Below are positions 21,208 to 47,060 of a stretch of DNA of 50,407 nucleotides, piece after piece. This DNA comes from a virus (taxonomy: Duplodnaviria; Caudoviricetes). Position numbers and translations under genes: made by a program. The DNA lies in IMG/VR virus record IMGVR_UViG_3300012988_000008, positions 1 through 50,407 of that record, one strand, 5' to 3'. The notes beneath the pieces are model-generated. The model did no database searches. It was not told the DNA's origin and was given only the letters and a program-made list of their open reading frames with translations. Position 1 is the stretch's first letter; the number at the start of each line of letters is the position of its first letter.

Positions 21208-21436
21208 ATCTATCATCGCCATCTTAGTCGCTAACCTACTGGCTCTGTCAGTAGTTTATGTCGTTCTTGACCTTCAAAGCCCTAGTCCGACGTTTGACTT
21301 AGTCGAATACACATTGGACGGCTCTGTTTATGTCCAAGACTATAGTTTGACTAAAGAAGACTGTATAGACGAAGCGCTTAAGGCCAACACATCAACTAAC
21401 GACTCATCTTATCTGTGTGAGGTGTCAGAAGAATGA
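21200..21436 (+). CDS. Early membrane-anchored hypothetical protein
   Basis: AAGGTGG RBS; N-terminal TM helix. Confidence 0.65.
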   Translation: MFKSIIAILVANLLALSVVYVVLDLQSPSPTFDLVEYTLDGSVYVQDYSLTKEDCIDEALKANTSTNDSSYLCEVSEE

Positions 21437-21627
21437 TGACCTATCAACAATGGCTCAAAAAGTTCCCCCTGCCCCAAAACTACAGGGCAGAAACAATGGC
21501 CGTAACAACAGACGTAATAAACCGTTGTCGGGTAGTAATGGCTGACAACAGAACTACTAAACGACGATTTGATTACGTCGAAGAAATAGCCCGCATTGAA
21601 TGGGCTCTAAGACAATCAGTTATCTAA
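21433..21627 (+). CDS. Hypothetical protein
   Basis: ATGA coupling to previous gene. Confidence 0.6.
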   Translation: MMTYQQWLKKFPLPQNYRAETMAVTTDVINRCRVVMADNRTTKRRFDYVEEIARIEWALRQSVI

Positions 21628-21708
21628 CCATCAACATCCCCGCCCTTACTTGCGAGCGTCTAGCTCAACTGCGCCAACCAGTTTGTTGGTATGATCGGAA
21701 CTAATAAC

Positions 21709-21816
21709 ATGCGTAAATCCACGGTTCTTGAAGAGGCCGTTATCGGTATGCTTGCCGGTTTCATGGTGGCCATTGCTTACGCCGCCTTTGTGTTGGTCTT
21801 TGGCGGGGGCTTCTAA
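21709..21816 (+). CDS. 35-aa single-TM peptide (MRKSTVLEEAVIGML...)
   Basis: Short hydrophobic ORF ending 2 nt before the next ATG. Confidence 0.55.
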   Translation: MRKSTVLEEAVIGMLAGFMVAIAYAAFVLVFGGGF

Positions 21817-21818
21817 AC

Positions 21819-22247
21819 ATGGCCCGCAAAGGTAAGCGCGAACGTATCATTGCAGCGCGTCAATCTATCATGACTGCCAACTGTAATGAACAAAAAGACC
21901 AGCCCCTGTTGACTAAAGGTATCGGCCCCGCCGGTTACAAATCACGGTCAACAGACAATAGAACAGGGCTCAAGGGACGTAACAGCGGTGTCGGTTTCCA
22001 CGGCCCACGGGGCTTTAACAGTCCCGTCTATGCTGTGTCTAAGCGGGAACAGACTAAGGGCCTCATTGGGCCTGTAGCGGGGCCTGACAAGGCAAGGCCA
22101 GCCTTTGGGGTCAATGGGTCACAGCGGTTCGCAGGAGATGAGAAGTGGGCGGCGGAGGAATTCGGTTACGACTACGCCGTGCCGGAACCGTCAGATACGA
22201 TCCTCATGAAGCACCCGCCTAAGCGCCCACGTTGGCGCAAGGTCTAA
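21819..22247 (+). CDS. Basic Gly/Arg/Lys-rich hypothetical protein
   Basis: 142-aa ORF followed by terminator. Confidence 0.6.
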   Translation: MARKGKRERIIAARQSIMTANCNEQKDQPLLTKGIGPAGYKSRSTDNRTGLKGRNSGVGFHGPRGFNSPVYAVSKREQTKGLIGPVAGPDKARPAFGVNGSQRFAGDEKWAAEEFGYDYAVPEPSDTILMKHPPKRPRWRKV

Positions 22248-22257
22248 CACCACTTTG

Positions 22258-22293
22258 GAACCCCCTGGGCGAAAGCCTCGGGGGTTTCTTTTT
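22258..22293 (+). terminator. Intrinsic terminator
   Basis: AACCCCC..GGC-GAAA-GCC..GGGGGTT followed by TCTTTTT. Confidence 0.88.
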
Positions 22294-22380
22294 GTCCCCT
22301 ATTATCAATGGGTTTTGATCTATCATCATTTTTATTCGTCACCCCCTGCAACCAATCCCCCCCTGTGTCATTTATCTCCC

Positions 22381-22842
22381 GTCAGACGGCAAGCGGGCCA
22401 AAGCGAAGGCCACCCCGTCGAACCTGCCCCCGCGAAAGCTGTCGGGGCCCTGACTACGGCGGAAGGCGTAAGCTGACTGCATGGAAAGGGGCCTACGCTT
22501 GGGGGACGTGGTGAAGTCCCGGTGACGACGGGGCTCCGTGGTCCGAAACGCCACCCCGCTTTGCGCCTAGCAAGCGCTGTCCGGGGGCATGTCATGGCGG
22601 AGTATTGGACACGTAAGCAAAACCCCCGCGCATGGTCATGTGTGACCCGCTGTGTGTAGCGTCCAGCGGGGGACAACACCTAGTGGGGTGCTCGCTGGCG
22701 TTAGGCCGGGGCACCCCTCGTGTTGTTAGCATTGAGACGGCAATCTATCATCGCCTGCTTTACACCCCGCTTTGAAGGGTCGTCAGGTTCCACCCGAACC
22801 TTGCCGTTTCTATCCTGACAACAATCCTGTTGTCGGGCTTTT
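22381..22842 (+). ncRNA. Putative large structured ncRNA or 5' leader (~460 nt), family unknown
   Basis: GC-rich, no credible CDS, about 10 nested helices with GNRA loops, bounded by terminators. Confidence 0.65.
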
Positions 22843-22844
22843 CT
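22814..22844 (+). terminator. Terminator/attenuator hairpin before the 211-aa gene
   Basis: CCTGACAACA-ATCC-TGTTGTCGGG then CTTTTCT. Confidence 0.6.
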
Positions 22845-22868
22845 ATCTTATGTGAAAGAGACACTAAC

Positions 22869-23504
22869 ATGGCTCCCCGTAAACCTAAAGCCGCTGCACC
22901 CGTTGACGCTGGCACGACTTCCATCGTTGCCCCGTTGACCTTGGAACAACGCATCGACCGGGCGATTACGCTCGACGGTACGTTTGACACTCAAACGCAT
23001 CTGCTTGCCGTCGAAACCCTTCAACACGCAGCGACTACTGGCGACTTCACCCTGTTCGCCAAGCTGATCGGTGACGTGACCACCAAGGGCGGACAGACCT
23101 TCGGTCGCGGCGTCCGGTCCCGTCGTCTGGCCCTCATCGAATGGGCCGCAGCTTTTAGCCCCATTCGCATCAACGGTGACGGTGTCATTGGCGCCCTCGC
23201 CGAAAGCGCCAAGGGTTATAAGCCGTACAACGTCGAAGGTGCGGAAGCTGTTCCGTTCTTTGATATGCCGTCCGAAAAGCGCCGTCGTGAGACGCACGCA
23301 CCTTTTGACGTCGCTGTCATCATGGGCCGCATCGGCTCCTTCAACAAGGCGATTGATAAGGCCGTCGAAAATGGCTCGCTGAACGATAATGAGGAGGCGC
23401 TCCGTCGCTTCACCGCTGACGTTCAAGCATTCGCCATCGCCAAGGCCGCCGAACTTGGCCTTTCGTCGGACGCAGCTAAGGCTCGCCGCGCCCAAGCGGC
23501 TTAA
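22869..23504 (+). CDS. Conserved early phage protein, probably highly expressed (211 aa)
   Basis: GAAAGAG RBS, strong C-ending codon bias, H....GD.T, W..F.P and PFF motifs. Confidence 0.8.
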   Translation: MAPRKPKAAAPVDAGTTSIVAPLTLEQRIDRAITLDGTFDTQTHLLAVETLQHAATTGDFTLFAKLIGDVTTKGGQTFGRGVRSRRLALIEWAAAFSPIRINGDGVIGALAESAKGYKPYNVEGAEAVPFFDMPSEKRRRETHAPFDVAVIMGRIGSFNKAIDKAVENGSLNDNEEALRRFTADVQAFAIAKAAELGLSSDAAKARRAQAA

Positions 23505-23649
23505 GAGTATATGACCGAACTTAAACGGGGTTAACGTCATTAAACTATGACCCTACTTAAAGACGTGGTGATATTTATTAAACTGGATGACAGGAGGGTC
23601 GTCATGTATCCGCCCCGCTAAATCGGGGCAACCTTTGTGCATATCATTT

Positions 23650-23684
23650 AACCCCCGTCGGTTCACACTGGCGGGGGTTATTTG
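23650..23684 (+). terminator. Intrinsic terminator
   Basis: AACCCCCGTCGG/CTGGCGGGGGTT stem plus ATTTG. Confidence 0.65.
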
Positions 23685-23806
23685 TGCTTATCAATGGATG
23701 CACGCCTTCGGCCTAAAACCGTGGGACGTGTCGCGACCGTGCATCCTTTCATACGCACAGCCGACGTGTTGGTAAGACGTATGAAGTCCATTAGGGACAA
23801 TCTATC

Positions 23807-23974
23807 ATGGACAAATATCAATATACCGTGGACCGCCCCGGCTCAAACGTGGTTGCCGGTGTCATCGCCTGGAACGATACGCACGTTCTCATTGACGTTT
23901 TTATTAACGGTAAACTGAAGACGAACCGCCTGCGTCGGCCTATCGAACGCTTCATGATCGACTACGCGCTGTGA
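23807..23974 (+). CDS. 55-aa hypothetical protein (MDKYQYTV...)
   Basis: AGGGA RBS; GTGA overlap with next gene. Confidence 0.6.
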   Translation: MDKYQYTVDRPGSNVVAGVIAWNDTHVLIDVFINGKLKTNRLRRPIERFMIDYAL

Positions 23975-24210
23975 GTGACACGACGGAGCCGTGCGGCGGA
24001 TGCGGCGAAGCTGATCCTATGAAGCGGTGCGTCGGATGCATGCACGACTTCCGCGCCCAGACGAAAGCCCGCGAGGACGCGCAGCCGGTGTGCCCGACTT
24101 GCAAAGGAACGGGCGCACTATGGGGCGGCGCAACAGGTCACATGATTTGTGAAAAGTGCGGCGGGTCTAGCAACAACCCCGCCCCCGACGCGCTGCGGGT
24201 AGCGGTGTAA
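23971..24210 (+). CDS. Cys-rich Zn-finger protein, GC-rich
   Basis: Four CxxC pairs including DnaJ-like CPTCKGTG. Confidence 0.6.
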   Translation: MSDTTEPCGGCGEADPMKRCVGCMHDFRAQTKAREDAQPVCPTCKGTGALWGGATGHMICEKCGGSSNNPAPDALRVAV

Positions 24211-24256
24211 GAAGTAATCTATCATCAGCTGTCTTACGCTTCGCATTTACAAGGAA

Positions 24257-24454
24257 ATGTTGATGTCCATTCGTTTTACACTGACTAATCGTAATAATGG
24301 TATTATCACGACTGTCGATGCCCCCCGTCGTGGTGAACACATCAAAGATGGCTCGGTAAAGGTCCTACAACCGACCGCTCGCGACTGTAACACCCTCATG
24401 CAAGACATTAAACACATCACCAAGTTGGGTGAAAAAGGAGGAATTTTGGCATGA
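24257..24454 (+). CDS. Hypothetical protein
   Basis: AAGGA RBS; ATGA overlap. Confidence 0.55.
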   Translation: MLMSIRFTLTNRNNGIITTVDAPRRGEHIKDGSVKVLQPTARDCNTLMQDIKHITKLGEKGGILA

Positions 24455-24780
24455 TCGACGCCAACGCAGAAATCCGAGCGAGGCGGGACGAACTCCAAAC
24501 AGAACTGGCAACAGTTCAAACACAGGTTGCATCCCTCAATCGAAAGGCTAAGTCAATCAGAGGGGAGCTTGAACCCCTTAATCGTAAGCTTAAGACTGAA
24601 AACCTGATCGTAGGTTCGCGTTGGTATCTGCCTAGTATGAGGTACTATTCGACAACCCGCAAGGACGTTCTCGTGATTCATAAGACCGAGACATACGTCA
24701 TCTATATTCACGGAGGACAGCCTGAACGTATGGGGATGCAAGACTTTTTGAGCAAAGCCGCCTTTAGGTCCTTGACATAA
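24451..24780 (+). CDS. Hypothetical protein with N-terminal coiled coil
   Basis: AGGAGG RBS. Confidence 0.7.
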   Translation: MIDANAEIRARRDELQTELATVQTQVASLNRKAKSIRGELEPLNRKLKTENLIVGSRWYLPSMRYYSTTRKDVLVIHKTETYVIYIHGGQPERMGMQDFLSKAAFRSLT

Positions 24781-24800
24781 TCATAGGCTCGTGTTATAAT
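24772..24800 (+). promoter_or_regulatory. sigma70 promoter
   Basis: TTGACA-17-TATAAT with TG extension. Confidence 0.88.
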
Positions 24801-24820
24801 CTTCTTGCAAGGAAGGGTAA

Positions 24821-25180
24821 ATGGACCTAACATCTTGGTTACTTCTTATATGGTTTGTAGGGGCCATCTGTTCCGCCCTTTTGGGGACCTACCTCGGCGC
24901 TAAATATCCTGAAGTTTCAGGAGAGGGTATCGTAATCGTCGGAATTTTTTGGCCCATCGCCCTCGCTGGGGGCATAATTGCACTACCATTTATCGGAATC
25001 GCCCTTTTAGGAGAGGCTTCAGGTAGACGCCTTAAGGCTAAGAAACTCGCTGCGTACGAGCGAGAAGAGGCCGGACGTAAGGCGCTGGCCGACAAATGGG
25101 CCGAAGAAAATAAAGACTGGTACTGGCACTACAATCCTTACAGTCGTCAGAACTACACCTTCAAAACCCCGCGACCTTAA
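24821..25180 (+). CDS. Membrane protein (2 TM)
   Basis: AAGGAAGG RBS; hydrophobic helices with FWP motif. Confidence 0.75.
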   Translation: MDLTSWLLLIWFVGAICSALLGTYLGAKYPEVSGEGIVIVGIFWPIALAGGIIALPFIGIALLGEASGRRLKAKKLAAYEREEAGRKALADKWAEENKDWYWHYNPYSRQNYTFKTPRP

Positions 25181-25200
25181 GTGAAAAGGAATCTATCATC

Positions 25201-25626: not shown

Positions 25627-25639
25627 GAAGGGACCCACA

Positions 25640-25831
25640 ATGAAGGGGCCAGCCGTTCCTAAGTCCCCGGTTAAAGGTACTCGATACGATCCGCCAGAAG
25701 ATTGGTTGTTCGGTAAAGGGTACTATGGGCCGCCCGATTTAAGGCCGCACCCGTCTGGATATACGTACGACCAAATTCGAATGTGGTTTGACTACAAAAT
25801 CAATCGAAAAACCGGTTTGATATATCCCTAA
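25640..25831 (+). CDS. Hypothetical protein
   Basis: GAAGGG RBS, ATG at 25640. Confidence 0.55.
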   Translation: MKGPAVPKSPVKGTRYDPPEDWLFGKGYYGPPDLRPHPSGYTYDQIRMWFDYKINRKTGLIYP

Positions 25832-25838
25832 CATTTTT

Positions 25839-25923
25839 GTCCGCGTGGTGGAATTGGTAGACACGACAGACTTAAAATCTGTTGCTAATTGGCGTACGAG
25901 TTCGAGTCTCGTCGCGGACACCA
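25839..25923 (+). tRNA. tRNA-Leu (anticodon UAA) with encoded CCA
   Basis: Acceptor GTCCGCG/CGCGGAC, D loop GG, ACAGA-CTTAAAA-TCTGT, long variable arm, TTCGAG T loop, ACCA end. Confidence 0.95.
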
Positions 25924-25934
25924 AGGAGGTTTAA

Positions 25935-26216
25935 GTGTGGGGGAGCCCTGTTGAAGTAGAGACCAGAAGACGAGTCTTATTAACGTATTATGCGTATGCG
26001 TACGAATATTTAGACTTGTCACTGGTTTCAGACGAAGAATTCGATAGGATGTCGTTTGAAGTGGATTTATCCATAGATACGACTAGACCAGACTTAGACA
26101 GTTTCTTTCGGACACATTTTAATCCGTACACAGGAATGTGGATACGAAATCACCCCGATTTGAGACGAGTACATAAAAGAATTCATCAGGTGTTTAAGGA
26201 TAAAATAAATGCGTGA
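25935..26216 (+). CDS. Stand-alone protein resembling NAD-dependent ligase subdomain Ia
   Basis: AGGAGG RBS; AYAYEYLDLSLVSDEEFD resembles YY..D.P.ISD.EYD. Confidence 0.6.
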   Translation: MWGSPVEVETRRRVLLTYYAYAYEYLDLSLVSDEEFDRMSFEVDLSIDTTRPDLDSFFRTHFNPYTGMWIRNHPDLRRVHKRIHQVFKDKINA

Positions 26217-26661: not shown

Positions 26662-27050
26662 CACTTCGCATTCAACCCTTCCCGCTTTGCTGCGGTATCG
26701 CAGTCGTAACGGGCTTTGGTAACGATCCGCGTCATGCCCATCGTGACCGTCGAGACGGTGCCCCCACAATGGCCGAGATCGAACAGTATCTTACGAACGC
26801 GGCTGCTGGTGGTTTGACCGGGGGAGGTCCCTTCCAAGGTACTGGTCTGGGTCGTGTGGGTATGCTGTTGGCAGCCGTAAACGCCGAACAGCGTGTGTTT
26901 ATGCAGCCCATCTTCCGGCGTCTTGGTTGGCGCCGTGCGGGGCGGGCACACAATATTCACAATCACCCTAACTCACGTCCCGGTGACGACAATTACTCTG
27001 AAATTTTCTTGTATAGGAAGGTGTTGGCGAATGCCCAAGACGATGACTAA
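26658..27050 (+). CDS. CCG-motif protein, GNAT-like (paralogue 1)
   Basis: FPLCCG...VNAEQ...FRRLGW...HNH; first gene of amidoligase cluster. Confidence 0.6.
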   Translation: MTLRIQPFPLCCGIAVVTGFGNDPRHAHRDRRDGAPTMAEIEQYLTNAAAGGLTGGGPFQGTGLGRVGMLLAAVNAEQRVFMQPIFRRLGWRRAGRAHNIHNHPNSRPGDDNYSEIFLYRKVLANAQDDD

Positions 27051-27417
27051 TACCCCTAAGCCCCAACACCTTTTCGTCTACGGTACGCTTCGTGACGCGC
27101 ACCCCAACTCTAAGCGATTCGGGCTGACTAGTGTCGCTAAACACAACGCCAAGTTGATGGGCTTCAATGTCCACAACCTTGGTTGGTTCCCCGGGATCGT
27201 ACCGGGCGAAGGCTTCGTAGTGGGGGACGTCTTCCACATCACAGACGATTTGATCCCGGGTCTGGATGCATACGAAGGTGTGCCCAGCCTGTACCGCCGG
27301 GAAGTTCATAAGGTCGGCTCGACTAACTGTTACGTGTACGTGTACAACGGCACACCGCCGCCGGGCTCCCAGATCACCGACGGTGACTGGCTCAAAACAA
27401 CTCAAGCGAAGGGTTAA
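27031..27417 (+). CDS. Gamma-glutamylcyclotransferase (GGCT/AIG2-like)
   Basis: LFVYGTLR, FPGI, V.G.V, LDAYEG..Y.R. Confidence 0.9.
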   Translation: MPKTMTNTPKPQHLFVYGTLRDAHPNSKRFGLTSVAKHNAKLMGFNVHNLGWFPGIVPGEGFVVGDVFHITDDLIPGLDAYEGVPSLYRREVHKVGSTNCYVYVYNGTPPPGSQITDGDWLKTTQAKG

Positions 27418-27426
27418 TCTATCATC

Positions 27427-28524
27427 ATGGCTAAACAACCCCAACAAGTCGGTCCGGGCTTGGTCCGCCGGTACATTCGACTAAGGTCGGGTAACCGTGC
27501 TTGGCGCATGGTTCGGCCGGATAATCCGAATATCGTTTATCCTCAGCCCAACGATGCCCCGGCCCAACGTCAAATACCGGCTGCCCCCGTGCCAGTAGCA
27601 GAGTCTCTAAACCCCGTGCCAGTAGCAGAGTCTCTAAACCCCGTGCCAGTGGCCGAACCCCTAACCCCCACGACAAAGCCCGATAAACCTCGTAAGTTTA
27701 AAGACGTTGGTTATCCTGCTTGTTGCGGTGCGTCGTTTCTTCTAATCGAGCCGCCGGCTTCTAAAAAGAAAACCCCTGAAGAAGAGGCTCGTTCGTATTA
27801 CGAAGCCAAGAACTTTGTCGCAACCCGTGATAACTACTTAGGGTACGTTAAAGTATACGAAGACGACCTTAAAGGTTGGGAAGCCGGCGGTAAAAAGGTT
27901 CGAACCCCTCGGGGGAACCACCCAAATACTACAAGACAATACATAAAAGATTACCAAAATGCTGCTGATTCGTATGAATTTGAGTATATGTTCAAGAAGG
28001 GTTTGTTGAACGGCAAAGCAGGCCAATATGACCGGGACATGGCGACCTACAAGTCCCCGGGGATCGCTTTGTCTATGGACCAATTTCATGGGGCGCATCA
28101 AACTCCGGCGGGTCTGTGGGTCCGTAATGACTACGAAATCCGGGAAAATTATTCGGGCAAACCCTTCACGGTTCCAGAGCCTTTTGAAACTCCTGACGTA
28201 AAACGGGACAAGGCCGTTGCGCTGACTCTTACGTCGCACACACACGACAACGGGTATAAAGTCCACTTAATTCAGGGCATGTCCCGAGACGATCTGGCTA
28301 ACGACATCGCCAGTTTCATTGCAAGGAATAAGAAATTTGCGGTCGGAGACGTCGTTACCTTTATCCTTAATAAGGGCCAAGGGACTCAACAAAAGCTGAA
28401 TAAGTTGGCCGCAGCGGGATATCGTCACGTTTTAACGACGTCAAACGCTAACCATAACGGGTCGTCTATTCTGTACTTGTTTGAACGGACTCTTACAGAC
28501 GTGGACAAACCGAATGGACAGTAA
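27427..28524 (+). CDS. CCG-motif protein (paralogue 2) with large insertion and Pro-rich repeats
   Basis: YPACCG...LNKGQ...AAAGY...NANH...LYLF. Confidence 0.7.
   Translation: MAKQPQQVGPGLVRRYIRLRSGNRAWRMVRPDNPNIVYPQPNDAPAQRQIPAAPVPVAESLNPVPVAESLNPVPVAEPLTPTTKPDKPRKFKDVGYPACCGASFLLIEPPASKKKTPEEEARSYYEAKNFVATRDNYLGYVKVYEDDLKGWEAGGKKVRTPRGNHPNTTRQYIKDYQNAADSYEFEYMFKKGLLNGKAGQYDRDMATYKSPGIALSMDQFHGAHQTPAGLWVRNDYEIRENYSGKPFTVPEPFETPDVKRDKAVALTLTSHTHDNGYKVHLIQGMSRDDLANDIASFIARNKKFAVGDVVTFILNKGQGTQQKLNKLAAAGYRHVLTTSNANHNGSSILYLFERTLTDVDKPNGQ
27585..27665 (+). repeat. In-frame 27-bp tandem repeat x3 (PVPVAESLN)
   Basis: CCCCGTGCCAGTAGCAGAGTCTCTAAA twice exact, third copy degenerate. Confidence 0.92.
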
Positions 28525-29203
28525 GTTTCCACTGGTATTTATCGCCAGCCGTCTTGATCCAAATGTGATGGGCCTTTTCTACGATATGGGTTTTCGTGGC
28601 ACAAACGATTTGATGCTGGCGGACGTCTGTGTCTTCACTGGTGGAGAAGACATTCATCCTCAACGCTACGGTGAACCTCTTATTCCAGAGTGTGGTCGTC
28701 CTAATGAAAAGCGGGACGCGCACGAAGCTGACACCTTTAGGAACTGTGTCGAATTTAAAGTCCCTATGATCGGTATTTGTAGGGGCGCACAATTTCTGAA
28801 TGTAATGAACGGCGGACGTCTGTGGCAACACGTCGACAATCACGGCGAGTCTCACAACGTCCGTTGTTTGTTGTCCGAGCAAGTTTTTAAAGCAACTTCT
28901 ACCCACCACCAAATGATGCGTCCGACAGAAGACGCCGAGGTGATTGCAGTCGCAGAAAAATCTCGCCCGGATGTCACCTTTAAGACTCCGTCTCTGTGTA
29001 CCGCACGGATGGCTGCGGGAATTACCCAACTGCCTAACACCGAAGACTACGACCCCGAAGTCGTGTGGTACGAAAAGACTAAGTCTCTGTGCGTACAATT
29101 CCATCCCGAGTACAACAAGGCGTCCGACAGTTGTCGTCCGTACTTCGTCAAACTCGTCGAAACCCTTTACCCCGAACTGTTTAAGCCGAGAGAGGCAGCA
29201 TAA
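28514..29203 (+). CDS. Class I glutamine amidotransferase / peptidase C26 (PuuD-like)
   Basis: TGGEDI.P..YG, GICRGAQ, S.HHQ, QFHPE. Confidence 0.9.
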   Translation: MDSKFPLVFIASRLDPNVMGLFYDMGFRGTNDLMLADVCVFTGGEDIHPQRYGEPLIPECGRPNEKRDAHEADTFRNCVEFKVPMIGICRGAQFLNVMNGGRLWQHVDNHGESHNVRCLLSEQVFKATSTHHQMMRPTEDAEVIAVAEKSRPDVTFKTPSLCTARMAAGITQLPNTEDYDPEVVWYEKTKSLCVQFHPEYNKASDSCRPYFVKLVETLYPELFKPREAA

Positions 29204-30537
29204 TGTGTGGACTCGTAGGAGTTGCAGGTGATCTATCAGGGCCTGACATTAAAGTCTTCAACAACCTTCTTTACTTCGACTACGTCCGGGGCTCCCACAG
29301 CACCGGTATTGCCAGTGTTCCCATGCACGGTGCAGCCGAGCCGACGCTCCTCAAGGCGGCGACCGATCCTCTTGGTCTGATGGGCTTCAAGGCGTACGAC
29401 ACTGCGGTCACGCCGTACAAACGTATTATTATGGGCCACAATCGGCACGCCACGAAGGGTGCTGTAAATCGGGTTAACTCACATCCGTTCCACGTGGGTA
29501 ATATTTTGGGAGCGCACAATGGTACCTTGGATTACTCGTGTCTCCGAGACCTTGAAAATGCACCGGAAGGTGAAACGGACTCCGAACAGTTGGTGGCTAC
29601 CATTAACGCCCTTGGGGGCGACATCGCGGGCGCTCTTGCACTGACTTCTGGTGCTTGGGCCTTGACAATCTATAAGGCCGAAGACAATTCGATTAACTTC
29701 GTCCGAAATAGTCAACGTCCGCTGTACTACGCCTTCAATGAATCTCGGAAGGCTCTTTATTGGGCGTCCGAAGCATGGATGCTTAGTGTCGCTCTTACAC
29801 GGAATGACATTAAGTTCTCTAAGATTATGGAAGTTCCGGTCGACACCATTCTGTCTTGGGGTATTCCGAAACTGAACCAGACCTTTGCTGATAAGCCCAC
29901 CCGTGAAAAAGCGGAGGGTAAGAAGGCAGCAAATTTTCGAACGCACGGACAAGGCGCACCGTGGATGGACTGGGGGCGGGAAGACGACAACAGCCGCCAG
30001 TTCGACCGAAGAACTGCTCAAACAAGCGGTGGAAACGAATCCAAAAAGCTTACCAGCGACAACAAGGAAGTTGTTGATGTCAACGACGACGATGAAGGCT
30101 GGGGGGCATACTACGAAGGCTTTATGGCCGGAGAGACGGGCCGTCCCCGAGCAGACAACCCGTACGACCACGCCAAACAAGGGCTCCACTGGGAACAGTG
30201 GCGAGACGGCTGGGTCGCAGGAGACGCCGCTGACGTCAAGGCAAAAAATTCCAAGAATAAGGACAAAGAAAAGAAAGACATTGTCAAGCCTTCTGATAAC
30301 AATGTTGTTCTCTTTTCCGAAAAAAAAGAAGCCCCTTCGTCTAGCGTCCGTAGAGGGCCCGGCGGAAACTACATCAACGCTGGAAAATTCCGAGAGCTGA
30401 CGGGCAACGAATGTGGTTGGTGTAATAATCCGATCACTTTCGCCGACAAGGGCTTCTTTATGCAACACGCAGCTAAGACAATCTTTATCTGCGAAACCCA
30501 CGGTTGCGCTACCGACAAAACCCTCCAACAAATGTAA
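29203..30537 (+). CDS. Class II (Ntn) glutamine amidotransferase with C-terminal extensions
   Basis: MCG N-terminal nucleophile, RG..STG, H.R.AT, HPF, HNGT, TDSE, RN..RPL, ASE; C-terminal Cys cluster. Confidence 0.92.
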   Translation: MCGLVGVAGDLSGPDIKVFNNLLYFDYVRGSHSTGIASVPMHGAAEPTLLKAATDPLGLMGFKAYDTAVTPYKRIIMGHNRHATKGAVNRVNSHPFHVGNILGAHNGTLDYSCLRDLENAPEGETDSEQLVATINALGGDIAGALALTSGAWALTIYKAEDNSINFVRNSQRPLYYAFNESRKALYWASEAWMLSVALTRNDIKFSKIMEVPVDTILSWGIPKLNQTFADKPTREKAEGKKAANFRTHGQGAPWMDWGREDDNSRQFDRRTAQTSGGNESKKLTSDNKEVVDVNDDDEGWGAYYEGFMAGETGRPRADNPYDHAKQGLHWEQWRDGWVAGDAADVKAKNSKNKDKEKKDIVKPSDNNVVLFSEKKEAPSSSVRRGPGGNYINAGKFRELTGNECGWCNNPITFADKGFFMQHAAKTIFICETHGCATDKTLQQM

Positions 30538-31395
30538 GTGAACATGAAAAACAATCGTTTTACTAATCGTTTTACTATTGGTGCTGACCCTGAAATGTTT
30601 GTCCAACAGGCTATGCCGGGACAAGAGCCGAGTATTATTTCTATCCATGGTTTGATCCCGGGTGACAAGCGTAATCCCTTTGCCGTCCGGGGTGGTGCCA
30701 TTCAAGTCGACGGTATGGCCGCTGAGATTAACGTCAATCCGGCACGAAACCGGCAAGAGTTCATGGACAATATTCGGTCGGTCATGGACGAACTTCAAGG
30801 ACATCTTCCGCCGTTTACTAGCATTGTTCACGGTCTTCCGGTCGCCGACTTTACGGCTGACTACATGGCAACCCAACCCCCTGAAGCAGTAGAGTTGGGC
30901 TGTGAGCCGGATTACAATGCTTGGACGGGCAACATTAACCCCCGTCCCAATGGTTCAGCTTTGTTCCGTACGGCGTCGGGGCACATCCACCTTGGCTGGG
31001 ACACGAACGTTAGTGACCCTTATGGTGACAAAGAGCACTTCGAACTGTGCTGCCGTATTGCCAAGCAAATGGATTACTATGTCGGTATCTACAGCTTGCT
31101 TTGGGACCCCGATAATCGCCGTCGCGATCTTTACGGTAAGGCGGGTGCATTCCGTGCTAAGTCGTACGGCTTGGAGTATCGCACACCGTCGACAGCGTGG
31201 CTTGCTAAGCCGGAACTTCAAGCGTGGGTCTTCGACGCGTCTGTCAAGGCACTGACTGACTACTTCAACGGTGACGTTGCCGAAGACCTGTTCGGGGACA
31301 TGGCACGATCTATCATCGACACCAACGACATTGACTGGCAGAAAAAGGTTGACTTTGACCTTGACCTCGTTCTGCCGTATCAACAGGCGGCTTAA
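30538..31395 (+). CDS. phiEco32-like COOH-NH2 ligase type 2
   Basis: IGADPE, GCEPD.NAW, RTA.GHIH.G, RR.LYGKAG.FR.K.YG.EYR. Confidence 0.9.
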   Translation: MNMKNNRFTNRFTIGADPEMFVQQAMPGQEPSIISIHGLIPGDKRNPFAVRGGAIQVDGMAAEINVNPARNRQEFMDNIRSVMDELQGHLPPFTSIVHGLPVADFTADYMATQPPEAVELGCEPDYNAWTGNINPRPNGSALFRTASGHIHLGWDTNVSDPYGDKEHFELCCRIAKQMDYYVGIYSLLWDPDNRRRDLYGKAGAFRAKSYGLEYRTPSTAWLAKPELQAWVFDASVKALTDYFNGDVAEDLFGDMARSIIDTNDIDWQKKVDFDLDLVLPYQQAA

Positions 31396-31408
31396 CAGGA
31401 GGGCTTAG

Positions 31409-32059
31409 GTGCTTAAATACGATACTTTGGAGCAAGCACAATTTCGGCTCCGACAGTCTGTCATTATGTACAAGGGTGAACCCTATTACTGTGACGCAGT
31501 TAATAAGCGCGGTAATGGGCCCATTCGTCTGTCCCTTATGGGACTTCCGATTTCTGGCACGGTGCCGACTGGGAAAGAAGGTCGAATCATTACCGTCGAT
31601 CAAGACGACGAAGACTTGGATTTCCGAATCTTCCGGCTTGGTTACATGAATGACCCTCAAAGACGGTCTGCGACGTTCTTGACTCGGACATCGTCCCGGC
31701 AGCAGCATCAAGGCCTAACCCGAGCGACGATTTTCCCGCAACCTTCCGGGTCTGCCATGTCGGGTCCAGCTATGCGTGATACTTTGATGGGTATCTATCC
31801 ATCCGTCGAAGAAGCTTTTAGTCGGATTAACGACGAAGGTTGGGCGTCTTGTGCCATCAGTCGAGACTTTGCTGTCGGTAGGTCTAAGGAAACCCCGCAA
31901 GTTCGCACCCTTATGTACAGGGGACGACCTGTAGGTGTAGCTTTAGGCTTAAAGTTCCAACATTTTCTGATTAACAAAGAAGACGAGTACTTGTCGGAGG
32001 CATTGCAAGAGGCAGGCTTCCCTTTCGAAGTGGACGAAACAGATGCAAAAACCTCTTAA
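31409..32059 (+). CDS. Conserved hypothetical protein of the amidoligase cluster
   Basis: AGGAGG RBS; LGY.N, R...RQ..QGL, A.SR.FA, L.YRG..VG. Confidence 0.75.
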   Translation: MLKYDTLEQAQFRLRQSVIMYKGEPYYCDAVNKRGNGPIRLSLMGLPISGTVPTGKEGRIITVDQDDEDLDFRIFRLGYMNDPQRRSATFLTRTSSRQQHQGLTRATIFPQPSGSAMSGPAMRDTLMGIYPSVEEAFSRINDEGWASCAISRDFAVGRSKETPQVRTLMYRGRPVGVALGLKFQHFLINKEDEYLSEALQEAGFPFEVDETDAKTS

Positions 32060-33164
32060 GGAACTTGGAACTCAAATTCACGCTTTCTACCGAGGCAATT
32101 TCGGGCAAAATCCTCCGGCCGACAGTGATTCCTTTGGTTTGGAAATCGAGCTCGAAGGACTTGGTGGAGAACATTGGACGGAATTCTCTGAAAAGCTTCC
32201 TAAGTTGGAAGGTTGGCGGACTGTCGAAGATGGATCGCTTCGAGACGGCGTTGAATTTGTCTCTAATGGCCCTCGGCCTTATAGTGTTCTGCGTGACGAT
32301 CTTCAACATCTTTCTGGGACATTCACCAAACTAGGGTTTACCCCTGTATTTAGTTTCCGTACCAGTCTTCATGTCCACATGAATGCTATGCATTTGTCGT
32401 GGAGAGACGTACTCAAGATTTATATTCTGTATATTATCTTTGAACGTCATCTTATGGAAATGGGCGGAGCAGAGCGACAGGGGAACGTTCACTGTTTGGG
32501 TGCAGAATTGGCTCAACGAACTATCGACGACCTTCGTGAAGCCCTTCAAGCAGACATTAAGGTGGGGGGCTTCAATCGGTACGGAGACCCTATCAATACG
32601 TCATTTGCACACGAAGTCGCAGCAGTGACTGACCGGGGCCGTCGATACGCGGCATTTAACTTTGCTAGCCTTCCGACTCACGGAACCATCGAGTTTCGTA
32701 ACCACAGAGGCACGGCAGACACTGACACAGTAATGGCATGGGTGGACACCCTCCGTGCTATGCGAGACTACGCAACGTCGGCGGTCCAAACGCCGATTGA
32801 ATTGCTTAAACGCTTTAGCACCCTTGGTGAACAAGCTTTTGCCGTAGAGGTCTTCGGACAAGGGTCTCCTATTGCCGTCGCTGTGACTCAAAAACCTGGA
32901 GAAACCCACACGGGTATGCGTCTGGCACAAGAAATTGCATTCGCACGTACTAATTGGGACACTAAGGCGGCACCTAAACCCAAGGTTAAAAAAGAAATTG
33001 TGGACTCTTATTCGGAGGCTGTCGCCAATTTCAATGATATAGATTGGGCAGCATTTGAACAAAGAGAAGAGGTCCGACGAGTGAGACAGAATGTTCAACG
33101 TTTCGAATTTAACCAATGGGCTTTACGCCCTGCGCAAGTAGGACCGATTAATAATGGCAACTAA
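32043..33164 (+). CDS. Putative amidoligase (COOH-NH2 ligase, glutamine synthetase fold)
   Basis: GLEIELE, DGSLR.G.EFV, RTS.HVH.N, RY.A.N, GTIEFR. Confidence 0.88.
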   Translation: MQKPLKELGTQIHAFYRGNFGQNPPADSDSFGLEIELEGLGGEHWTEFSEKLPKLEGWRTVEDGSLRDGVEFVSNGPRPYSVLRDDLQHLSGTFTKLGFTPVFSFRTSLHVHMNAMHLSWRDVLKIYILYIIFERHLMEMGGAERQGNVHCLGAELAQRTIDDLREALQADIKVGGFNRYGDPINTSFAHEVAAVTDRGRRYAAFNFASLPTHGTIEFRNHRGTADTDTVMAWVDTLRAMRDYATSAVQTPIELLKRFSTLGEQAFAVEVFGQGSPIAVAVTQKPGETHTGMRLAQEIAFARTNWDTKAAPKPKVKKEIVDSYSEAVANFNDIDWAAFEQREEVRRVRQNVQRFEFNQWALRPAQVGPINNGN

Positions 33165-33915
33165 AATCTTTAGTCATAATCCCGGTAGTCGGGGAGCAGG
33201 AGAGCTCGCAAATGCCCTTGGAATTGCCCGGGTCCGACACGTGGGAAGCCGAGTTCGGTGCGGCCGACAAGACACCGTTATCAATTGGGGAAGTGGCCGT
33301 GCTCTCCCTGATCATGTTGCTGGGGCTGGTCGTATTCTTAATGCCCCGGCTGCTGTCGCAGTGGCTTCGAACAAACTCCGATGCTTTGAGCGTATCGGCG
33401 CTAGGGCTCGTTGTGTTCCTTACACTACCCAAGCTGGCGTAGCTCGTGATTGGGGCACCAAGGTTGTAGTCCGACATACGCTTAACGGACATTCTGGTGA
33501 AGGCATTGAAATTGTCGAGCCGGGGGTTGACATCCCGGCCGCGCCATGCTATACTAAGTACATTGTCAAGGAGTCCGAATGGAGAATTCATGTCCTCAAC
33601 GGTCAAGTCATCGATGCAACCCGTAAGATTCGAGACCCTGACTTCGTAGGCGAACCGAACTGGGCGGTACGAAATCACGCGGGTGGGTTTATCTTTGCAC
33701 GTAACTCGGGTGAACCGTCTGAAGACGTCGTGCGACAAGCAGTCGCCGCAGTGGAAGCTGTTGGACTCGATTTCGGTGCTGTAGACGTCATGGTCTCAAA
33801 ACCGACTCGTGGTCATCCGGAACGCTTAGCGTACGTACTTGAAATTAACACTGCACCCGGTTTGGTGGGCACTACGGTCGAAAGGTATCGCGATGCGTTC
33901 CGAACCATCCTTTGA
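33154..33915 (+). CDS. ATP-grasp ligase (RimK/GshB-like)
   Basis: INWG, ASNK, GHSG.GI, E.R.HV, LDFGAVD, LEINTAPG. Confidence 0.9.
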   Translation: MATKIFSHNPGSRGAGELANALGIARVRHVGSRVRCGRQDTVINWGSGRALPDHVAGAGRILNAPAAVAVASNKLRCFERIGARARCVPYTTQAGVARDWGTKVVVRHTLNGHSGEGIEIVEPGVDIPAAPCYTKYIVKESEWRIHVLNGQVIDATRKIRDPDFVGEPNWAVRNHAGGFIFARNSGEPSEDVVRQAVAAVEAVGLDFGAVDVMVSKPTRGHPERLAYVLEINTAPGLVGTTVERYRDAFRTIL

Positions 33916-34398: not shown

Positions 34399-35002
34399 AG
34401 GGGAAGAACTTATCGGGTACATGGCCCGGGTGTCCAACCCCGATGCACAGTTGGGGGAAGACGCATCAAAGTTAATTCGTTACCTTATTAAACATAAACA
34501 TTGGTCACCATTTGAAATGGTGTCCGTCTGTCTTGAGTTGGAGACAACCCGTGACGTGTCACGACAAATACTTAGGCATCGTTCGTTTCACTTTCAGGAA
34601 TTTAGTGGTCGGTACGCCGCTTACCAAGAACTGCACACCGTTCGTGAAGTCCGTATGCAGGACGCTGAAAACCGACAAAATTCTTTGGAAAGCTCGGACG
34701 AATCGTTGGCCCTTTGGTGGAACGACGCAATTAAAGATGTCTCAGCACACGCCGGGGCGCTTTATTCTGAAGCATTGGAACGAGGAGTCGCTAAAGAAGT
34801 TGCCCGCTCCGTTCTCCCAGAAGGTCTCGTTCCTACGCGAATGTACATGGTCGGGACCTTGCGCGACTGGATTCATTACTTCGCCGTGAGGTGTGGTCCG
34901 GAAACACAAAAGGAACACCGAACGTTGGCCCGAGAAATGCGATCTATCATCATGTCACAGTTCCCTAACGTGGAGAAAGCACTTGAAGAAGCAGGGGTTT
35001 GA
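34367..35002 (+). CDS. thyX: Flavin-dependent thymidylate synthase
   Basis: H.SPFE, RHRSFHFQEFSGRY, KE.AR..LP, Q.EH. Confidence 0.95.
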   Translation: MSAKLVWATPKGEELIGYMARVSNPDAQLGEDASKLIRYLIKHKHWSPFEMVSVCLELETTRDVSRQILRHRSFHFQEFSGRYAAYQELHTVREVRMQDAENRQNSLESSDESLALWWNDAIKDVSAHAGALYSEALERGVAKEVARSVLPEGLVPTRMYMVGTLRDWIHYFAVRCGPETQKEHRTLAREMRSIIMSQFPNVEKALEEAGV

Positions 35003-38608: not shown

Positions 38609-38609
38609 A

Positions 38610-39227
38610 ATGAATGGTCCAATGTTTTGGAATGCATTACTAAGAGGATTGGCTAACGTCGGTCATAACGAAGAAAATATGATGATCGCCGGTGGCTGTA
38701 TTCGAGATTGGCTCTTAGGTCTTGAACCTAAAGATATCGACATTTTCATCGGTAGTGGTAACACACATTTCAACGCCCCTGAAACTTGGGAAGCCGGAGA
38801 ACAGAACCGAGACGAAGAGTACTTCGGTCGTGGTGGCCCGCAAAATATTACTGCGATCCATAATTATCGTGTAGCAAACACGGACGTCCAAGTTATTTAT
38901 TGTAATAGATCAATTTACGCGCATCTTGCTTCATTTGATCTGAAACTTTCAAATGCGTTCTTTACGTTAACTGGGGGATTGACTGTCCCACAGCCTGTTA
39001 TCGATAGTCTCGAAAGCAAAACTATTTTAGCTAATCTGCACAGGACTGCGGCTAATACAATGGAACGTGCAGAACGTTTCTTAGCCAAAGTTTCCGAAGT
39101 CGAAGAAGGTTGGCGAATTGATCGTGAGCAAATTAGACATGAAATGCCCATGGCTGCACCGCAAAATTTAGTATTTAATAGGCTCCCCCCTCCTGCCTTT
39201 GCCGGACTTGGGGGTGATTGGGCCTGA
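38610..39227 (+). CDS. Nucleotidyltransferase, CCA-adding/poly(A) polymerase head-like
   Basis: IAGGCIRD.LLG..PKDIDIF. Confidence 0.8.
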   Translation: MNGPMFWNALLRGLANVGHNEENMMIAGGCIRDWLLGLEPKDIDIFIGSGNTHFNAPETWEAGEQNRDEEYFGRGGPQNITAIHNYRVANTDVQVIYCNRSIYAHLASFDLKLSNAFFTLTGGLTVPQPVIDSLESKTILANLHRTAANTMERAERFLAKVSEVEEGWRIDREQIRHEMPMAAPQNLVFNRLPPPAFAGLGGDWA

Positions 39228-39397
39228 TGAACTATAAAAACCATATTACCCATTGGCGGGGTAAACCTCTTCGAGAACTCAGCCGGGACGAAGCTCTAGA
39301 AGGAATGCAAGAACTTAATCGTCTTTATCAAGGTGCATTGGACAATATACAACGTACTTTGGTCAACTCGAAGCGTGCTGATTATTTTAATAATTAA
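39227..39397 (+). CDS. 56-aa hypothetical protein (MNYKNHITHWRGKPL...)
   Basis: TGATG coupling. Confidence 0.55.
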   Translation: MNYKNHITHWRGKPLRELSRDEALEGMQELNRLYQGALDNIQRTLVNSKRADYFNN

Positions 39398-39423
39398 TGT
39401 AGTATTACCCCCGCTGCAAGAAT

Positions 39424-39452
39424 ATTATAACACAGGAATGCAATCTTGTCAA
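39424..39452 (-). promoter_or_regulatory. Consensus sigma70 promoter antisense to the replication arm
   Basis: TTGACA-17-TATAAT with TG extension on minus strand. Confidence 0.75.
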
Positions 39453-39685
39453 GTCCTTTATTTTATACTCACGTAAATCGTGGTATTATTGACAGTAATC
39501 GAAAGAATGGGACAAACGATCCACCCGTAGTAGTTAAAAGGGGTAAGACGGGAAAGGGTTGGTACGCCAACGAAGTAGAATTGCCTCCGGGCAGCCGAAT
39601 GGTTTACAGTGCCCATAATCCAATACTGTCTTGCGGGGCCCGTCTTGTGATTATTTCTGAGCAAGAACCTCGAAAGATCGCTTGA
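39446..39685 (+). CDS. Conserved small phage protein
   Basis: AGGA RBS, TTG start; HVN..I..N.K.G...P and LSCGAR. Confidence 0.7.
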   Translation: MSSPLFYTHVNRGIIDSNRKNGTNDPPVVVKRGKTGKGWYANEVELPPGSRMVYSAHNPILSCGARLVIISEQEPRKIA

Positions 39686-39710
39686 CAAAACGTCTCTGAC
39701 GTGCTATAAT
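39682..39710 (+). promoter_or_regulatory. sigma70 promoter for the SSB-to-RNR block
   Basis: TTGACA-17-TATAAT with TG extension. Confidence 0.9.
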
Positions 39711-39776
39711 ACTGATACTAAGAAAACGAGCAGACGTGTTGCTCCAATAAAAATAAAAACAAGGAAGAGTTACAGA

Positions 39777-40238
39777 ATGATTTTACGTGGACGTGTTGCC
39801 TGGGCAAAGGTTCTGGGGAAAGCCTCTAAGGGCTACGACGAAAACGAGCGGGAATGGTCGATTGACTTCGAGCCGACCGCTGAAGGTGTAGAAAAGTATC
39901 TGGCCGAAGGCGGTTCAGACTTCTACATCAAGTCTAAAGAAAACCACCCGCTGGATCGTTATATCGCATTCAAGCGCCGTGAAACCAAACGAGACGGCAC
40001 CCCCGCCCAACCCATCAAGGTGTTGGACTCCAAGGGACAACCGTGGGACCCCGATACTAAGATTGGTAATCTGTCGGTCGTAGACGCCAAGTTTGCACTG
40101 AATGAAATTACTGTCGGTCGGGTTAAGCGTCTGAAGCCGTCGCTGATTGCACTGAAGATTGTCGAGCACGTGCCGTACGAAGGCAAGGGCAATGACTCGG
40201 ACTTTGAAGACTTCACGTTTGACGACGAGGCTTGGTAA
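39777..40238 (+). CDS. Single-stranded DNA-binding protein (T7 gp2.5-like)
   Basis: G...WAK, IGN.S, acidic tail ending in an aromatic residue. Confidence 0.8.
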   Translation: MILRGRVAWAKVLGKASKGYDENEREWSIDFEPTAEGVEKYLAEGGSDFYIKSKENHPLDRYIAFKRRETKRDGTPAQPIKVLDSKGQPWDPDTKIGNLSVVDAKFALNEITVGRVKRLKPSLIALKIVEHVPYEGKGNDSDFEDFTFDDEAW

Positions 40239-40423
40239 TGGTTGACGTTGCAGACCTTGTAGTCGTAGAAGTCGGCGGTTCAGCCACAGTTCGAGACTAC
40301 TTTAAACAACTTTGGGCGTCTCTGACGAACCAAACTATTACACATACATTTGATAATCTAACTATCGACAAACCTACGGCTCGTAAGATTTATAAGCGGG
40401 CTTATCCTAAGGCAAAGGTTTGA
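40238..40423 (+). CDS. Hypothetical protein
   Basis: TAATG coupling. Confidence 0.55.
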   Translation: MVDVADLVVVEVGGSATVRDYFKQLWASLTNQTITHTFDNLTIDKPTARKIYKRAYPKAKV

Positions 40424-40602
40424 AGTTTACGGCAACTTTTCAACAAGCTGTCGAAGGTATTGAAACTGTCGAAGTTGTCGTCGAAGCTGAAACGTGGGAC
40501 GAAGCCTACACTAAGATCAGCAGTGGTGAGTACGAACGCTACAAAGTCGTCGACAATAAATTCGTCCGTACTAAGCAACTAGGGACCATCAATGTCTATT
40601 GA
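40420..40602 (+). CDS. Hypothetical protein
   Basis: TTGA coupling; V.VEAE..DEA. Confidence 0.55.
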   Translation: MKFTATFQQAVEGIETVEVVVEAETWDEAYTKISSGEYERYKVVDNKFVRTKQLGTINVY

Positions 40603-41437
40603 CACATTAGTCGAAGATATTCTTGGCCTCTTCAGTACGGAACCCCACGAGGCGGACGCAGCTAATGTGTCCGCCTTAGGGGAACAGATCGCGCAGACAG
40701 TGGCTGCCCGCCTCGCAGAAGCCCCCCGCCCCGGTACGTTACGCATGTCGAATCTTGGTAAGGGTGACAGGCAAATCTGGTACGAAGTTAAGGGCGGGGC
40801 CGACAAAGAAGAAATCGGGCCAGAGACCAAGATTAAGTTCCTGTTTGGGGATATCTGGGAATCTATCATGCTCTTCCTCGCCAAAGAGGCGGGACACGAC
40901 GTAAGTCACGAACAAGCGGAGGTAGAAATTGATGGGGTTGTTGGCCACATGGATGCCGTTATTGACGGTGTTGTCGTCGACGTTAAGACTGCATCCAAGT
41001 TTGCTTTCCAAAAGTTCGCTAAGGGTACACTTAAAGAAGACGACGCCTTTGGCTACTATGAGCAACTAGGGGCGTACAGCCACGCCCTTGGTGGTATCGA
41101 CGGTGCTTGGCTTGCTGTCGAAAAAGAACAAGGCAAGCTTACGCTACTTAAAGCGGATAAATCCGAATTCGACGAACTAAACATCCCTGCGCGGGTGACA
41201 CACCTTAAGGAAGTTCTGGACGACACTGAGCCTCCCGAACGTTGTTATGAACCTGTCGAACATGGCAAGTCTGGTAACATGGCCTTAGGTGTTAACTGCT
41301 CTTATTGTCCCTTCAAGGCGACGTGCTGGGCAGACGCCAATGATGGCATTGGTCTGCGGACCTTTATTTATTCCAAAGGGCCTGTGCATTTAACGCACGT
41401 AGTCAAAGAGCCCGACGTATACGAGGTTACATTTTGA
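40592..41437 (+). CDS. PD-(D/E)xK (Cas4-like) exonuclease
   Basis: GHMD, DVKTAS, Y..QL..Y, C.YC..K..C. Confidence 0.85.
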   Translation: MSIDTLVEDILGLFSTEPHEADAANVSALGEQIAQTVAARLAEAPRPGTLRMSNLGKGDRQIWYEVKGGADKEEIGPETKIKFLFGDIWESIMLFLAKEAGHDVSHEQAEVEIDGVVGHMDAVIDGVVVDVKTASKFAFQKFAKGTLKEDDAFGYYEQLGAYSHALGGIDGAWLAVEKEQGKLTLLKADKSEFDELNIPARVTHLKEVLDDTEPPERCYEPVEHGKSGNMALGVNCSYCPFKATCWADANDGIGLRTFIYSKGPVHLTHVVKEPDVYEVTF

Positions 41438-46511: not shown

Positions 46512-46530
46512 TTGAAAAGTATTAAATACT

Positions 46531-47058: not shown

Positions 47059-47060
47059 TC

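Follow-up and report, generated by a model that had tools for sequence, protein, structure and literature searches.

A strand-exclusive nine-base word and a small HNH-type protein point to a probable nicking system related to that of tf and LUZ24 in a Zobellviridae-like phage

Knowledge of site-specific nicks in phage DNA goes back to T5, and the puzzle that they pose is about 50 years old. The described cases closest to the one considered here are tf and other LUZ24-like phages, for which we follow excerpts of the papers cited, here and below, by PMC number. In tf, 14 nicks mapped by signal drops lie within 5'-TACT/RTGMC-3', all on the top strand and 11 of the 14 in the left half, and just three further sites are present at one substitution (PMC3517423). 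LUZ24, PaP3 and MR299-2 carry TACTATGAC at positions similar to those in tf (PMC3517423), P1-14Or01 and Ab22 show an excess of read ends at GTACTATGAC (PMC3634792, PMC4482731), and the nanopore coverage of Rembedalsseter drops at 13 WACTRTGAC sites (PMC11780129). Dougherty et al. (PMC11780129) report WACTRTGAC to be enriched in 61 Pseudomonas phages, often at the starts of coding sequences (CDSs) and with a function not known; according to the excerpts, the word shows no enrichment outside this 61-phage cluster. The excerpts of PMC3517423 and PMC11780129 describe neither the function of the nicks nor the enzyme as known for the LUZ24-like group, and our literature searches for a named nickase of the LUZ24-like nicks found none. 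Here we describe a word, ATCTATCAT, that is repeated on one strand of IMG/VR virus record IMGVR_UViG_3300012988_000008. The window analysed is the whole record of 50,407 nucleotides; its genome is called G000, and the relatives compared with it are called G001-G018, L081 and so on. From sequence, and with a probability of about two in three, we propose that a site- and strand-specific nicking endonuclease encoded by the phage recognizes the eleven copies of ATCTATCAT. The most likely candidate for this enzyme is an 84-amino-acid (aa) HNH-type protein whose gene adjoins that of the large terminase, directly upstream.

On an exact count over the whole window, ATCTATCAT occurs 11 times on the + strand and is absent from the - strand, which reproduced the coordinates of an initial annotation of this DNA (Table 1). 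The same annotation had put the chance expectation at about 0.2 copies per strand; dinucleotide shuffles gave 0.16, with a largest count of 2 and none of 100 shuffles reaching 11, and an order-3 Markov model gave 0.105 on the + strand and 0.060 on the - strand. Allowing one mismatch raised the total to 12 matches against 6.1 expected, the sole addition being ATCTATCAG; the genome thus preserves the word in exact form, which is untypical of sigma-70 promoters. In a strand-specific k-mer screen with no word preset, ATCTATCAT was the top word of the genome. Five copies lie in CDS interiors, and the codon-preserving shuffle proposed with the initial annotation reached this number in none of 1000 synonymous-codon replicates (mean 0.34, maximum 3; mean 0 on the other strand). 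The absence of the word from the structural arm (1-21000 and 46400-50407), noticed earlier by eye, holds for both strands, and the impression of a density that is highest at the early end, with spacing widening away from it, is borne out by the opening 26% of the + arm, which holds 8 of the 11 copies (binomial p 0.0016; Kolmogorov-Smirnov test against a uniform distribution, p 0.0085).

Codon alignments at three of the sites within CDSs bear on selection. In the exonuclease, G000 and G006 encode E-S-I-M where the other relatives have E-A/E/S/D-V/L/A/M-L/I (e.g., E-A-V-L, E-A-L-L or E-S-V-L); in ThyX, G000 has R-S-I-I-M and its relatives R-S/N/A-L-V/I-L (e.g., R-S-L-V-L or R-A-L-I-L); and in the ligase, G000 and G007 have S-I-I where relatives have Q-I-I, D-I-I or E-I-I. 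Since residues are altered to spell the word at all three sites, the nucleotide word itself is under selection, at some cost to the protein. Every copy within a long open reading frame (ORF) of G000, G001 or G003 has the same codon phase, its first base falling on the third codon position. This fixed phase is explained by the places at which the word is tolerated, namely hydrophobic pairs that allow replacement by Ile-Ile or Ile-Met.

The phase bias also lends itself to another reading, in which the word acts in mRNA as the operator of a translational repressor or as the site of a phage endoribonuclease that shuts off early genes. T4 RegA and RegB are comparable mRNA-level systems. The motif is present on the sense strand only, its density peaks in the earliest genes, and 6 of the 11 copies overlap or abut an ATG; three of these run into the start codons at 23807, 25201 and 27427, as the initial annotation had stated. 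The start-codon overlap and the phase bias recur, however, at the proven DNA nicks of tf: counted from the tf annotation, 9 of 12 plus-arm nick sites have the same codon phase and 3 of 14 nicks lie directly before start codons (sci1, sci4 and sci11), so that the features first suggesting a translational role fit DNA nick sites as well. The phase, moreover, is accounted for by the residues that tolerate the word, and the position relative to the Shine-Dalgarno sequence varies, the word lying upstream of it in G002 and G001 and between it and the ATG in G000. Relatives also have copies antisense to late genes, two mapped tf nicks among them, and no RNA-binding or RNase candidate was found. We consider an action in mRNA highly improbable, and the operator, RNA-binding and RNA-processing alternatives named in the initial annotation are disfavoured. 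Its statement that some copies lie inside a structured RNA found no support: the segment 22296-22830 folds like its shuffles (z -0.69), and Rfam gives a tRNA only. The segment is, as an observation in its own right, a G+C-rich stretch of 535 nt on the + strand that contains copies 3 and 4 and lies, with no convincing ORF, between a terminator and the next gene.

The placement of the copies raises the question of transcription as well. The word could be the core of a phage-specific promoter or transcription start, at which the host RNA polymerase is redirected by a phage factor. T4 late promoters are single-element promoters. The word stands on the sense strand of the early arm, upstream of genes at distances of 7, 10, 10, 40 and 87 nt; copy 3 follows one of the terminator-like hairpins (at 22262 and 23649), and a copy in G001 lies directly past a terminator. 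Its TATCAT part resembles a -10 hexamer, but a scan for the -35/-10 consensus flags only 1 of the 11 copies (22723-22751, TTGTTA-17-TATCAT), upstream of the word nothing is conserved beyond one purine, and separate sigma-70 sites at or near consensus are found at 20935, 24772 (12/12) and 33527 on the + strand and at 20459 on the - strand. In 6 of the 11 copies the ATG overlaps the word or lies 0-1 nt past it, which would place any start site 6-8 nt downstream within the gene itself, and five copies are in CDS interiors. No gene for an RNA polymerase or sigma factor was found among the proteins of the genome, some of the relatives' copies, like two of the mapped tf nicks, keep to the same DNA strand but are antisense to late genes, and for the LUZ24 start sites determined by cappable-seq the excerpt reports no second motif by MEME (PMC10914365). 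A promoter role is thus quite improbable in our judgement.

Returning to the word as a probable nick site, we compared the genomes of relatives, which were obtained via two proteins and supplemented from a phage collection. They carry lineage-specific variants on the same strand and with the same gradient (ATCTATCAT, GCTATCATC, TGCTATCA, TACTATCA and ATCAGTCAT). The word for each genome was picked after viewing k-mer tables, and the counts, given as early strand:other strand, describe a pattern and are not a test. G006 has ATCTATCAT at 9:0 (CTATCAT at 13:1) and G008 at 6:1; G007 has [AG]TCTATCAT at 13:0, G001 GCTATCATC at 10:1 and G010 ATCAGTCAT at 6:0; ACTATCAT stands at 6:0 in G009 and 5:0 in G012, CCTATCAT at 8:0 in L081, TGCTATCA at 8:0 in CVT22 and 6:1 in Klyazma, and TACTATCA at 6:0 in ICP2. 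The nick word gives 14:0 in tf and 9:0 in LUZ24. In each of the well-populated relatives the copies begin at the start of the early arm and their spacing then widens, as with the CTATCAT core in G007 (9355, 9930, 10252, 10885, 11361, 12248, 13375, 13954, 14876, 16575, 19221, 22615, 33310 and 37554). Individual positions are also kept: a copy lies upstream of the orthologue of the ORF at 22830 in G000, G006, G007 and G002, at the same exonuclease codon in G000 and G006, and at the same ligase codon in G000 and G007. The terminase of G010 is 73% identical to that of G000, and yet its early strand is devoid of CTATCAT; its word ATCAGTCAT has the early-dense layout and differs at two central bases, at the predicted cut. 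Another word of G010, ACTATGA (11:0), has a LUZ24-like look and was dropped in favour of ATCAGTCAT, its flanks being variable, its layout not early-dense and its reading that of GAC-TAT-GAx codons. CTATCA[CT], with 21 copies on the terminase strand of VpV262, was likewise dropped as a motif, having no extended consensus. In G003, a 49% fragment, the strand opposite the replication genes holds four copies of GCTATCATGC and the other strand one, and the fragment has an ordinary 167-aa HNH_3 protein in place of the small HNH family.

When applied to the phages with mapped nicks, the same k-mer screen recovers the nick words as the top strand-specific words, namely TACTGTGAC at 11:0 in tf and GTACTATGAC at 7:0 in LUZ24. 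The ICP2-type word GTACTATCAT and the LUZ24-type word GTACTATGAC are identical at 8 of 10 bases, and the variants grade into GTACTATGAC and TACTRTGMC, the link to the word of G000 resting on intermediate variants and a common context. ATCTATCAT is off the published consensus and tied to it via these intermediates, and was therefore filed as a variant and not as the same site. Given that WACTRTGAC showed no enrichment outside the 61-phage cluster, this variant lies beyond what Dougherty et al. surveyed. The copies in G000 are most likely nickase recognition sites, a variant form of those in tf/LUZ24 that occurs in another phage lineage. The initial annotation had suggested a new nick consensus. 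The nick-site part of that suggestion is favoured by the hallmarks of the word, the graded motif family, the common early module and the small HNH-like gene; its novelty is reduced to that of a variant within a known motif family.

The candidate enzyme emerged from profiles of all 71 proteins of G000, built from six close relatives and searched against eleven more distant genomes. That of the 84-aa protein was the only one to match exactly G001, ICP2, CVT22 and CW02; it differs in this from the other structural-arm proteins common to these four genomes, PA11 and SIO1 lacking the 84-aa protein. The protein is also present in G002, G006-G010, G012-G015, G018, Klyazma and MEP402. Profile searches did not detect it in PA11, SIO1, P12053L, VpV262, Vib1.264, G004, G005 or G011, where the best E-values listed were 1.2 or worse and P12053L gave nothing at E <= 50, and no extended strand-exclusive word was seen in P12053L, VpV262, Vib1.264 or G011. 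This co-occurrence of motif and small HNH gene across genomes is suggestive. A tblastn search of the phage collection with the 84-aa protein gave no match, which is probably an effect of the short query and low-complexity filtering, because profile searches on the fetched genomes do find the protein. A search of the ORFs of 13 genomes with a richer profile places an ORF of tf (16126-16413, +) and one of LUZ24 (15622-15930, +) at the top. Aligned with ICP2 gp12, the tf ORF shows 38% identity over 92 aa (E 3e-10), and it matches the family profile with an hhalign probability of 90%; read from TTG, both ORFs begin with M-A-K like ICP2 gp12, and their N-termini agree. They are unannotated, the records giving tf_29 and gp26 ("transmembrane") in another frame of the same DNA, which may be why the gene was overlooked. 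The annotated tf_29 frame had itself been considered as the HNH homologue; its comparison with the HNH family gave nothing.

Several features of the protein recall those of an HNH enzyme. Among 13 sequences, H49, N61 and N70 are invariant and D46 and N57 nearly so, and 11 of the 13 family members match Pfam HNH_3 at E <= 1 (best 2.8e-8). The best profile match in the PDB is I-HmuI, an HNH homing endonuclease, at a weak E of 0.039; the D-H...N...N-L...N motif aligns with residues 70-99 of I-HmuI (PDB 1u3e). A structural model with a confidence score (pLDDT, predicted local distance difference test) of 83 has two helices followed by a strand at 45-49, a strand at 62-66 and a helix at 67-71, and its top three matches by VIA-align among 48,161 chains are GVE2 HNH (5h0o), I-HmuI and the Gme HNH nicking endonuclease (4h9d), with Z of only 4.2, 4.0 and 3.9. 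The protein is devoid of the extra DNA-binding domains of I-HmuI and has a basic two-helix N-terminus instead. Its homologues in metagenomes form at least 7,994 clusters and, where named, are called "hypothetical protein". We also observed that the N-terminal pattern MATxxRQRAQAKYNSKP accompanies words starting with ATCT-, that KGxxKxGAxxDSxRQRxYNSSP accompanies TGCT- and GCT-, and that RNYxxEYxxYxxxP accompanies (T)ACT-. Such a pairing of N-terminus and 5' portion of the word could stem from specificity, or simply from common descent.

A possible connection to genome ends comes from Klyazma. Across the inner boundary of its right 711-bp terminal repeat, the early strand carries a perfect TGCTATCAT, and the other repeat boundary has an inverted near-copy, GCTATCCAT; both boundaries (49580-49590 and 705-720) fall at GC|TATC, inside TGCTATCAT and, on the opposite strand, GCTATCCAT. 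The authors of the Klyazma genome determined the repeats with PhageTerm and Sanger reads and saw the Sanger signal drop at the site of a motif copy. A nick in the template strand at the motif would be expected to cause such a drop, because rightward sequencing there copies the motif-bearing strand, and the observation is an indirect hint of a nick at this copy. The repeat call may also partly reflect nick pile-ups. No inverted near-copy that would mark a Klyazma-like repeat was found close to the divergent region of G000. In VpV262, which has neither the small HNH gene nor the motif, the two boundaries of the 138-bp terminal repeat are GGAG|ACACA sequences inverted relative to each other, a hint that opposite strands are cut at specific sites.

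A broader proposal is possible, and we hold it only tentatively: word and 84-aa HNH protein may form a portable nicking module of two otherwise distinct groups of podoviruses, the LUZ24-like and the Zobellviridae-like, in which protein and word co-evolve (TACTRTGAC, TACTATCAT, TGCTATCAT, ATCTATCAT and ATCAGTCAT) and in which the same cut helps to form or mark the terminal-repeat boundary, this last point being suggested by the Klyazma coincidence. The same coincidence is compatible with a word that is a polar DNA signal read without cutting, such as a binding or pause site in packaging or ejection, a Chi-like hotspot or a signal for priming or replication. Its strict polarity, its gradient from one genome end and its conservation across relatives with differing hosts would all fit such a signal. 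We regard it as unlikely, since the homologous words of tf and LUZ24-like phages are physically nicked and the co-occurring gene has a nuclease motif, not merely a DNA-binding one. The word also differs between the close relatives G000 and G010, a change that a co-evolving phage enzyme fits better than a host machine.

If the eleven copies are nick sites, the 84-aa enzyme would, late in infection, cut the + (top) strand inside each of them, at or next to ATCT/ATCAT by homology with TACT/RTGMC of tf. About 11 ligatable single-strand breaks, most of them toward the early end, would then be expected in the packaged DNA. Were this end packaged last, the nicked strand could be the one not tracked by the packaging motor; it would also be the non-template strand for the early genes, so that nicked DNA could still be packaged and, on entry, transcribed. 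Both of these last points are guesses.

A number of observations weigh against this explanation or parts of it. Nicks are proven in the tf/LUZ24-like phages and are predicted from sequence alone in G000, where ATCTATCAT is identical to TACTATGAC at only 5 of 9 positions and does not match the published consensus TACTRTGMC/WACTRTGAC. Seven of the 11 copies sit at a junction between genes or no more than about 40 nt from a start codon; this, like the position of copy 3 after a terminator, also fits a role in expression. Some HNH-positive genomes have few or degenerate copies (three in CW02, a mixed CTATCA[CT]G in G002 and an unclear picture in G015 and G018), and the copies of G013 are on the terminase strand. 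The association between HNH gene and motif is confounded by shared ancestry, and the words were picked after looking and not blind. The G000 protein scores 21.8 bits against the Pfam HNH_3 cut-off of 24.8, its structural matches to HNH enzymes are weak, with all Z below 5, and a Foldseek search against the PDB gave nothing at E <= 0.001. Abstracts describe small HNH proteins beside terminase genes as known packaging components, so the role of the 84-aa protein could be end formation and not internal nicking. The nick word is, on the other side, absent at the terminal-repeat boundaries of tf and LUZ24, so that end formation cannot yet be called a general role.

The genome is that of a complete Zobellviridae-like podovirus. 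A 123-bp repeat at the record ends (1-123 and 50285-50407) falls within an 871-aa open frame that spans the junction on the - strand, and thus represents an assembly overlap and not a physical genome end. The genes for terminase, portal, capsid, tail and internal virion proteins lie in the - arm (1-21000 and 46600-50407), and their products share about 50% identity with the counterparts in Zobellviridae such as ICP2, CW02, P12053L and SIO1. The + arm (21000-46400) encodes small early proteins, a tRNA-Leu, ThyX, primase/helicase, PolA, a nucleotidyltransferase, a PD-(D/E)XK exonuclease, endonuclease I, a metallophosphoesterase and ribonucleotide reductase. By profile searches, this early/replication arm is homologous to that of the LUZ24-like phages: 13 of the 71 proteins have relatives in tf, among them those of the amidoligase cluster, primase/helicase, PolA, endonuclease I and the metallophosphoesterase. 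The cluster, which comprises GGACT, two glutamine amidotransferases, a COOH-NH2 ligase, an amidoligase and an ATP-grasp protein, is also present in tf/LUZ24, PA11, CVT22 and CW02 and is missing from ICP2 and SIO1. Nlig-Ia is the N-terminal NAD+-binding domain of DNA ligases, and a stand-alone version of it, with no homologue among the relatives examined, is curious beside predicted ligatable nicks. Nucleotide searches of the phage collection returned tRNA matches only, or nothing. Among public sequencing runs, one DNA run was listed as containing this genome, stored as contigs, a form in which molecule ends do not show, and no RNA run was listed.

Table 1. Copies of the word, the candidate nickase gene and other features of the window
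Feature	Coordinates	Strand	Remarks
Copy 1	21208..21216	+	8 nt past the ATG at 21200, at a gene junction; stop of the upstream small ORF at 21205-21207
Copy 2	21863..21871	+	Codon 15 of ORF 21819-22247; final two bases open an in-frame ATG
Copy 3	22318..22326	+	Intergenic; about 34 nt past the stem of a terminator-like hairpin (22262-22284)
Copy 4	22743..22751	+	87 nt upstream of ORF 22830-23504; counterpart at the same place in G006 (+85), G007 (+150) and G002 (+111)
Copy 5	23800..23808	+	Final two bases are the A and T of start codon 23807
Copy 6	24217..24225	+	40 nt upstream of start 24257; the orthologous copy in G006 itself provides the ATG
Copy 7	25191..25199	+	Between a Shine-Dalgarno-like AAGGA and start codon 25201
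Copy 8	27417..27425	+	First base is also the last of the GGACT gene (26893-27417) and of its stop codon; following gene opens at 27427
Copy 9	31308..31316	+	Codon 257 of the COOH-NH2 ligase gene; G007 carries GTCTATCAT in the same codon-alignment column
Copy 10	34942..34950	+	Codon 192 of ThyX
Copy 11	40861..40869	+	Codon 90 of the PD-(D/E)XK exonuclease gene; same site in G006
Sole one-mismatch copy	29231..29239	+	ATCTATCAG
Candidate nickase gene	17313..17567	-	84 aa, basic; I-HmuI-like HNH_3 motif D46, H49, N57, N61, N70
tRNA-Leu (anticodon TAA)	25839-25923	+	Early arm; ARAGORN and Rfam
93-aa Nlig-Ia protein	25935-26216	+	Pfam match at E 9e-10, above the cut-off
GGACT/amidoligase cluster	26893-33915	+	

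If the explanation is right, the nick system extends well beyond the 61 surveyed Pseudomonas phages to Zobellviridae-like phages of soil, marine and enteric hosts, with variant words that escape any search based on the published consensus. One small gene would become a testable nickase candidate, making nick-less mutants and in vitro assays possible and the function of the nicks directly testable, and small nickases with sites of 9-10 bp would be of practical interest as tools. The broader module, if real, would name the long-sought nickase of the LUZ24-like phages, hidden in an unannotated frame with a TTG start, and would link the processing of genome ends, and polar packaging or entry, with the old question of phage nicks. 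Nick pile-ups, for their part, may be taken for genome ends by phage annotators and by terminus-calling programs.

In comparison with known systems, the other phage interruptions described in the excerpt of PMC3517423 are similarly localized and strand-specific, with a consensus and a function not known; their consensus sequences, R/GCGCRGG and CGACNNNNNCCTA/CTCCGG, are unrelated to the word found here, as are the phage lineages. The tf/LUZ24-like phages differ from G000 in having TACTRTGAC in place of ATCTATCAT, in their structural module, which in G000 is Zobellviridae-like and not LUZ24-like, and in the position of the HNH gene, which is beside the terminase gene in G000 and in the early arm in the tf/LUZ24-like phages. 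Both have asymmetric exact words of 9-10 bp that occur 8-14 times, with few copies or none off the main strand and a concentration toward the early (left) end; both have a variant word at similar positions in related phages, some copies that double as start codons, a homologous early/replication module and the same small HNH-like ORF.

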